Source of the DNA: Escherichia coli | GTDB taxonomy: Bacteria > Pseudomonadota > Gammaproteobacteria > Enterobacterales > Enterobacteriaceae | DNA length: 64,000 nt | NCBI RefSeq assembly: GCF_003334765.1 | Contig: NZ_QOWT01000003.1 | Direction: 5' to 3' (one strand) | Part shown: piece by piece, positions 52,319 to 52,745 of the stretch | How the letters are laid out: each line of letters begins with the position of its first letter | How positions within the stretch are numbered: the first letter of the stretch is position 1 | Notes under the pieces: generated by a model | Databases searched by the model: none | The model's input: the letters and a program-made list of their open reading frames with translations, nothing else | What the model was told of the DNA's origin: nothing | Translations under genes and position numbers: made by a program

Positions 52319-52459
52319 TGCTGTTGTCTGCTCCTGGTAAATGCTTTTTCCTGCACTATGACACAATTTTGTGTCAGGTTGCATATACCGAAGCCGTCGG
52401 CGGGTAACATTTGTATCCGTGGTTAAAAGCGCAGCTTAAAAGATCAGGGATTTGCGCTA

Positions 52460-52690
52460 ATGCATTTCGCTCAGCGAGTTCGCGCCCTGGTTGTGTTGAA
52501 TGGCGTGGCGTTATTGCCTCAATTTGCCTGTAAACAGGGGCTTGCGAACGGTGAACTGGTGCGCCTGTTTGCACCGTGGAGCGGCATACCCAGACCGTTG
52601 TATGCTTTATTTGCGGGGCGAAAGGGGATGCCTGCCATTGCGCGATATTTTATGGATGAGTTAACCACGCGGCTTGCCAACGGGGTCTGA
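52460..52690 (+). pseudogene. yqfE: C-terminal fragment of a LysR-family regulator (yqfE-type remnant)
   Basis: 76-aa ORF resembling only the C-terminal effector domain of a LysR regulator, no HTH; K-12 annotates a pseudogene here. Confidence 0.6.
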
Positions 52691-52745
52691 ATCGCTTTTT
52701 TTGTATATAATGCGTGTGAAATTTCATACCACAGGCGAAACGATC

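Follow-up and report, generated by a model that had tools for sequence, protein, structure and literature searches.

The open reading frame (ORF) annotated in Escherichia coli K-12 as yqfE is, with a probability of roughly 95%, a dead remnant of a deletion that destroyed an accessory redox module formerly located between argP and rpiA. In the 64,000-nucleotide stretch of E. coli DNA analyzed here (the window), this ORF occupies positions 52460..52690 of the plus strand and comprises 76 codons, beginning with an ATG, plus a stop. Judged from its sequence, yqfE is a deletion-junction chimera, because only residues 14-76 are derived from a LysR family regulator, while the ATG and codons 1-13 are the antisense of codons from an azoreductase-like gene. 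The ORF is already known as an annotated K-12 pseudogene, and its history is one of ordinary gene decay; what is new is the anatomy of the chimera, its intact progenitor module, and the frequency of that module among complete E. coli genomes (233/5,426).

Comparison with the MG1655 chromosome (NC_000913.3) covered 2,700 bases, corresponding to window positions 51001-53700, and gave 100% identity. The ORF has the same sequence and chromosomal position as yqfE (b2915), which lies at 3059381-3059611 on the minus strand of MG1655, between rpiA (b2914) and argP (b2916), and carries a pseudogene flag there. The initial annotation of the window had correctly described an orphan LysR fragment, but did not recognize it as this annotated pseudogene. 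In other strains, PGAP labels the same ORF a “LysR substrate-binding domain-containing protein”, a “type 2 periplasmic-binding domain-containing protein”, or a “hypothetical protein”, or leaves it uncalled.

Descent from a LysR family member is evident from several comparisons. A Pfam search with the 76 residues returned a single match, to LysR_substrate (PF03466), in which residues 15-72 align with model positions 151-208 of 209 (i-E 7e-7), and returned no match to HTH_1 (PF00126). Weak NCBIfam matches covered the final ~60 positions of two LysR models, AaeR and PRK14997. By BLASTP, residues 14-76 align with residues 236-298 of an intact, 298-aa LysR protein from E. coli PapRG-06-5 with 62/63 identities, and yqfE is collinear with this full-length gene at the orthologous locus. 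Such similarity is not due to chance, and together with the Pfam result it agrees with the initial proposal that the ORF represents only the C-terminal end of a LysR regulator, without an HTH domain. The accompanying proposal, that the N-terminal part including the HTH had been deleted, is likewise borne out by the intact 298-aa gene found at the same locus elsewhere. An upstream in-frame start preceding an HTH domain was looked for and is absent; an in-frame TAA (52421-52423) lies 12 codons upstream of the yqfE ATG, and therefore no such start is possible. The LysR assignment does not extend, however, to the ATG and the first 13 codons, which had been included in the fragment initially.

Compared with LysR regulators of the AaeR/YafC/PRK14997-like subgroup, the K-12 fragment has neither HTH nor linker helix and is missing ~70% of the effector-binding domain; the PF03466 domain (~209 positions) is represented by model positions 151-208 only. 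On these comparisons, the fragment is a non-working derivative of the family. If the 76-aa product were made at all (a weak Shine-Dalgarno-like AGGGA lies 9 nt upstream of the ATG), it presumably could not bind DNA, fold as an effector domain, or act as a regulator, because it has no DNA-binding domain and only ~60 of ~210 domain residues.

The positions of the flanking genes also needed revision. The initial annotation had reported a 75-bp gap to argP and had argued from it that a deletion had occurred. This figure arose because the maximal ORF listing over-extends argP (51425..52384, 319 aa, ATG at 52384) beyond its annotated CDS; the true gap is 141 bp, and the argument drawn from the shorter distance loses its basis. 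Likewise, the overlap described between the remnant and an “extended rpiA ORF” depends on a TTG start at 52674 that is an artefact of the maximal ORF listing, and a spacer of 55 bp separates the yqfE stop from the annotated rpiA ATG. The listing over-extends scpA as well (ORF 49077..51242, 721 aa from a TTG, versus 714 aa annotated). Coordinates of the annotated genes, the scar, and the intact counterpart are collected in the table.

Table. Features of the argP-rpiA interval in the window (K-12 state) and in E. coli PapRG-06-5 (locus L007), with ERIC insertions at two further loci.
Feature	Position	Strand	Remarks
argP CDS	51425..52318	-	297 aa, annotated
argP upstream region	52319..52374		common to K-12 and module-bearing strains; 96-98% identical to L007 and L008 at 3437-3492
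Spacer	52375..52418 (44 bp)		site of the ferric-reductase-like and DUF1471 genes in module-bearing strains
Azoreductase-like 3' remnant	~52419-52497	-	approximately the last 26 codons, without the stop codon
Deletion junction	52497..52498		~1.35 kb lost (L007 5259-6604)
LysR-derived part	52498..52690	+	third base of codon 235, codons 236-298, and stop; substrate-binding domain tail
45-bp segment in remnant	52520..52564	+	in-frame deletion polymorphism, GCCT microhomology flanks
TATAAT, likely rpiA -10 hexamer	52706-52711	+	perfect; 34 bp from ATG
rpiA CDS	52746..53405	+	219 aa, annotated, ATG at 52746
Collinear block: argP 5' end and 56 bp upstream	window 52201-52374 = L007 3319-3492		99% identity
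Collinear block: inside azoreductase-like 3' end	window 52440-52497 = L007 5201-5258		88% identity
Collinear block: LysR from third base of codon 235, spacer, rpiA	window 52498-52800 = L007 6605-6907		99.7% identity
argP, intact locus	L007 2543-3436	-	297 aa
Ferredoxin-reductase/ferric-reductase-like protein	L007 3507-4832	-	441 aa
DUF1471 protein	L007 4894-5154	-	86 aa
FMN-dependent NADH-azoreductase-like protein	L007 5171-5800	-	209 aa
LysR family regulator	L007 5901-6797	+	298 aa
rpiA, intact locus	L007 6853-7512	+	219 aa
ERIC element	L004 ~905-1030; L012 ~5900-6040		L004 is E. coli E09

The initial suggestion to seek an intact ancestor at this locus in other genomes proved productive. A 92-aa E. 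coli variant of yqfE (P0019) extends further upstream than the K-12 form, and its contig holds, upstream of rpiA, frameshifted pieces both of a whole LysR gene and of a Flavodoxin_2 gene. With a DNA query from this contig, the full module was found between argP and rpiA in 233/5,426 complete E. coli genomes (~4%). Gene order is argP(-), ferric-reductase-like(-), DUF1471(-), azoreductase-like(-), LysR(+), rpiA(+), and in PapRG-06-5, whose locus (L007) served as the reference, the module spans 3507-6797. The first of its products combines a ferric-reductase-like transmembrane part with an FNR-like flavoprotein, and the DUF1471 protein is BhsA-like. The 209-aa azoreductase-like protein matches azoreductase subfamily models with scores below the NCBIfam cut-offs, and is thus described as “azoreductase-like” rather than as an ortholog of AzoR (FMN-dependent NADH-azoreductase; Pfam Flavodoxin_2). 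Against two NCBIfam models, PRK14997 and YafC, the intact LysR protein aligns end to end (residues 2-294, E 1e-49), again below equivalog cut-offs; these alignments to full-length LysR models begin at residue 2 and include the HTH region. By these model scores, no equivalog-level name fits even the intact gene.

The module was also found at loci L008, L009, L010, and L012, and at L011 without the azoreductase-like gene. E. whittamii, Escherichia sp. E1V33, and Escherichia sp. MOD1-EC7003 carry it at the same position, and in each of these three non-coli genomes the ferric-reductase-like gene is broken differently. Finally, a Pseudocitrobacter metagenome-assembled genome (MAG) carries the ferric-reductase-like, DUF1471, and LysR genes at this site, with the LysR protein 73% identical and the flanking argP and rpiA ~95% identical; an azoreductase-like gene was not detectable there between argP and rpiA. 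Because the module occupies the same site in other Escherichia and in Pseudocitrobacter, it is old at this location, and the K-12 state is derived.

Database searches with the remnant itself gave little beyond this family. A word-indexed protein search with the 76 residues recovered only short Escherichia/Shigella variants (43-110 aa) and no full-length relative, and phmmer, run exhaustively over 1.84 billion representatives, recovered a single 300-aa LysR protein (P0069) that is 54% identical to yqfE, with no closer full-length protein outside this LysR family. P0069 is encoded on a Logan contig (SRR31546743; L005 5267-6903), is 64% identical to the intact LysR, and is paired with a divergent Flavodoxin_2 azoreductase-like gene (67% identical), with fimbrial and FidL-like genes adjoining. 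With this different genomic context, P0069 served as a lead and was not taken for the ancestor of yqfE. The recurrence of the pairing in another context argues, by gene content, that the LysR and azoreductase-like genes behave as a conserved two-gene unit. LysR regulators are usually transcribed divergently from their target operon, and the intact LysR gene is likewise divergent from its probable targets. Because of this usual arrangement and the P0069/Flavodoxin_2 pairing elsewhere, the ancestral LysR would have regulated the divergent azoreductase-like/DUF1471/ferric-reductase-like operon.

Alignment of the window with L007 by blastn resolves the scar into three collinear blocks. The deleted ~1.35 kb comprises the 5' portions of two divergent genes, azoreductase-like and LysR, together with their common promoter region, and comparison with seven independent loci that are intact or nearly so (L006-L010, L012) puts the breakpoint at the same place each time. 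On the plus strand, the junction is in frame and fuses the antisense of the azoreductase-like 3' end to LysR codon 236. Further upstream, the 44-bp spacer at 52375-52418 has no match in the intact module or related loci, and when 52365-52445 was locally aligned with that module, only chance-level matches resulted; no trace of the ferric-reductase-like and DUF1471 genes was detected in the K-12 scar.

The scar holds a second remnant, on the minus strand, which was missed when the LysR tail was first correctly read. A mirror ORF (52374..52574, minus strand) aligns with residues 182-207 of the 209-aa azoreductase-like protein with 20/26 identities (E 9e-13, BLASTP); the intact counterpart of the remnant residues is TQPGRELAEQNALAQIPELITQVFNH. 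This C-terminal match at the orthologous locus places the remnant in the azoreductase family, although only ~26 codons are left of what in FMN-dependent NADH-azoreductases is a complete enzyme. Within the 58-bp azoreductase-like block there are seven nucleotide differences, and because five of the seven are synonymous, the K-12 ancestor may have carried a divergent but functional azoreductase-like allele before the deletion. The two remnants also differ in their relation to the intact alleles of the same strains. From L007 position 6605 onward the LysR remnant is 99.5-99.7% identical by blastn (99.5% against the intact alleles of these strains), versus 88-93% for the azoreductase-like remnant, which implies that the scar has a mosaic history, involving recombination or a divergent allele, rather than one simple clonal event.

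The following sequence of events would account for these observations. The ancestor would have held the four-gene module between argP and rpiA. A single ancient deletion of ~1.35 kb, with ends inside the azoreductase-like and LysR genes, would then have removed both 5' halves and the common promoter region, thereby joining the antisense azoreductase-like 3' end in frame to LysR codon 236, and a chance ATG in the antisense sequence would open the 76-codon ORF. As for the ferric-reductase-like and DUF1471 genes, they may have been lost separately or may never have been part of the version in the K-12 ancestor. The resulting fragment would be without function, rpiA would rely on a promoter of its own within the 55-bp spacer, and the scar would persist because it is short, neutral, and adjoins essential flanking signals.

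The K-12-type scar is the common state in E. coli, on the criterion of at least 80% cover of the K-12 intergenic query, by which 5,158/5,426 complete genomes (~95%) carry it. Once these and the 233 genomes with the module are subtracted, ~35 are left, which have further deletions. In many scar-bearing genomes decay has continued, with larger deletions, frameshifts, and ERIC insertions among the changes. For example, the yqfE start is TTG in other E. coli lineages, most of the ORF is gone in strain E09, and a 45-bp in-frame deletion was seen in strain F5656C1. The corresponding segment was detected in only 2,883/5,426 genomes by megablast with a 28-base exact word, a search that a few SNP-bearing copies may escape. 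Protein clusters of the ORF have lengths of 43-110 aa, with truncated and frameshifted forms among them; one frameshifted form, named as Shigella sonnei, occurs on 375 contigs. Judged by these variants, the reading frame is not selectively maintained across the population, as is characteristic of a pseudogene. A search of 51200-53800 against Rfam matched no family. The only E. coli paper found to name yqfE concerns the genome-reduced strain DGF-298, in which the ORF falls within an engineered 10.4-kb deletion (PMC10652928).

A further claim of the initial annotation, that the rpiA promoter lies inside the remnant, is not supported; the only strong element, a TATAAT, is found 16 bp past the yqfE stop. 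A -35 at ~52682-52689, as given by a 16-18 bp spacer from the TATAAT, would be a poor candidate and the only element to overlap the last yqfE codons and stop; the hexamers available there (GGGTCT, GGTCTG) match TTGACA poorly. Hove-Jensen and Maigaard, in the Journal of Bacteriology in 1993, are said to have mapped by primer extension a well-conserved rpiA -10 region whose distance to the start codon is 34 bp, and which we take to be this TATAAT. A promoter and terminator consensus scan of 52250-52800 found nothing, including no sigma-70 promoter with a recognizable -35. The TATAAT does not vary among E. coli, E. whittamii, the two further Escherichia sp., and Pseudocitrobacter. From E. coli to Pseudocitrobacter the motif TTTTGTATATAAT is likewise invariant, as is the leader, and the sequence that precedes TTTTGTATATAAT is unconserved in Pseudocitrobacter. 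The core of the rpiA promoter is likely, on this sequence conservation, to lie in the 55-bp spacer, outside the remnant. Since this spacer is identical in strains with an intact LysR gene, the deletion neither created nor moved the promoter. The Cappable-seq, Kim 2012, and Cho 2014 supplements give no rpiA start site in the text searched.

Natural insertions bear on the same question. In E. coli E09 and Escherichia sp. MOD1-EC7003, an ERIC/IRU element of ~124 bp, absent from the window, lies immediately upstream of the rpiA TATAAT, displacing the native upstream sequence by ~124 bp while the -10 is retained. The insert holds an exact copy of what we presume to be the ERIC2 primer sequence, and parts of it occur at ~3 copies per genome. 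The junction between ERIC and the leader was found in 67/5,426 complete E. coli genomes.

These results allow other explanations of the locus to be weighed. That the K-12 state is ancestral and the four-gene module a later insertion in a minority of strains might be suggested by the rarity of the module in E. coli (4%), by the lower GC of its three minus-strand genes (0.38-0.48, versus 0.52-0.56 in the flanking genes), and by Klebsiella MGH78578, where rpiA and argP bear consecutive locus tags in an ortholog table (PMC3415461). However, K-12 holds two truncated gene ends whose frames run exactly into the full genes, and therefore insertion is ruled out; in addition, E. whittamii, two further Escherichia sp., and, for most of its genes, Pseudocitrobacter carry the module at this site. 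The probability of this explanation is accordingly negligible, and a recent insertion is refuted by the truncated reading frames on the time scale of E. coli. Original acquisition of the module before the Escherichia radiation is a separate claim with which these data are compatible.

Loss of the module from K-12 being the preferred reading, it can still be asked whether what was left behind does anything. It is highly improbable that yqfE specifies a small protein with a function, such as a fragment interfering with the oligomerization of other LysR regulators; the K-12 ORF is intact from an ATG, is called as a CDS by PGAP in many strains, and may have a weak Shine-Dalgarno sequence, but its opening 13 residues come from meaningless antisense sequence, the promoter region of the LysR gene itself has been deleted, MG1655 curators flag it as a pseudogene, and the TTG starts, the absence of the 45-bp segment from nearly half of genomes, the widespread frameshifted and truncated variants, and the larger deletions are hardly those of a maintained gene. 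A cis-regulatory role, in which the last tens of bases of the remnant are kept for an rpiA -35 or UP-like element, is unlikely. The -35 position does fall on the end of yqfE, the last ~70 bp of the remnant are retained in every deletion variant inspected, and the 3' LysR end and spacer are 99.5% conserved between scar and intact alleles. Against this, the hexamers there fit the consensus poorly, ERIC elements in 67 genomes push this sequence ~124 bp away from the -10, and sequence upstream of TTTTGTATATAAT varies in Pseudocitrobacter even though the -10 and leader are conserved. Moreover, the same arrangement exists with an intact LysR gene, so that at most a promoter would overlap the end of the gene preceding it, which is an ordinary situation. 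Overall, it is very doubtful that the scar is active, whether through a chimera that interferes with other LysR regulators or through a LysR tail that tunes rpiA transcription; if it were, one deletion allele would have come close to fixation in E. coli by selection and not by drift.

Taken as a dead remnant, yqfE carries little general biological weight, being textbook gene decay already flagged in the reference genome. For annotation, a chimeric pseudogene is the proper label for the ORF to which some pipelines give the name “LysR substrate-binding domain-containing protein”. The natural ERIC insertions beside the rpiA -10 offer an existing means of testing which sequences upstream are required for rpiA. 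Finally, the intact progenitor is an uncharacterized, predicted LysR-controlled redox module that is polymorphic in E. coli and may be studied in the ~4% of strains that retain it.
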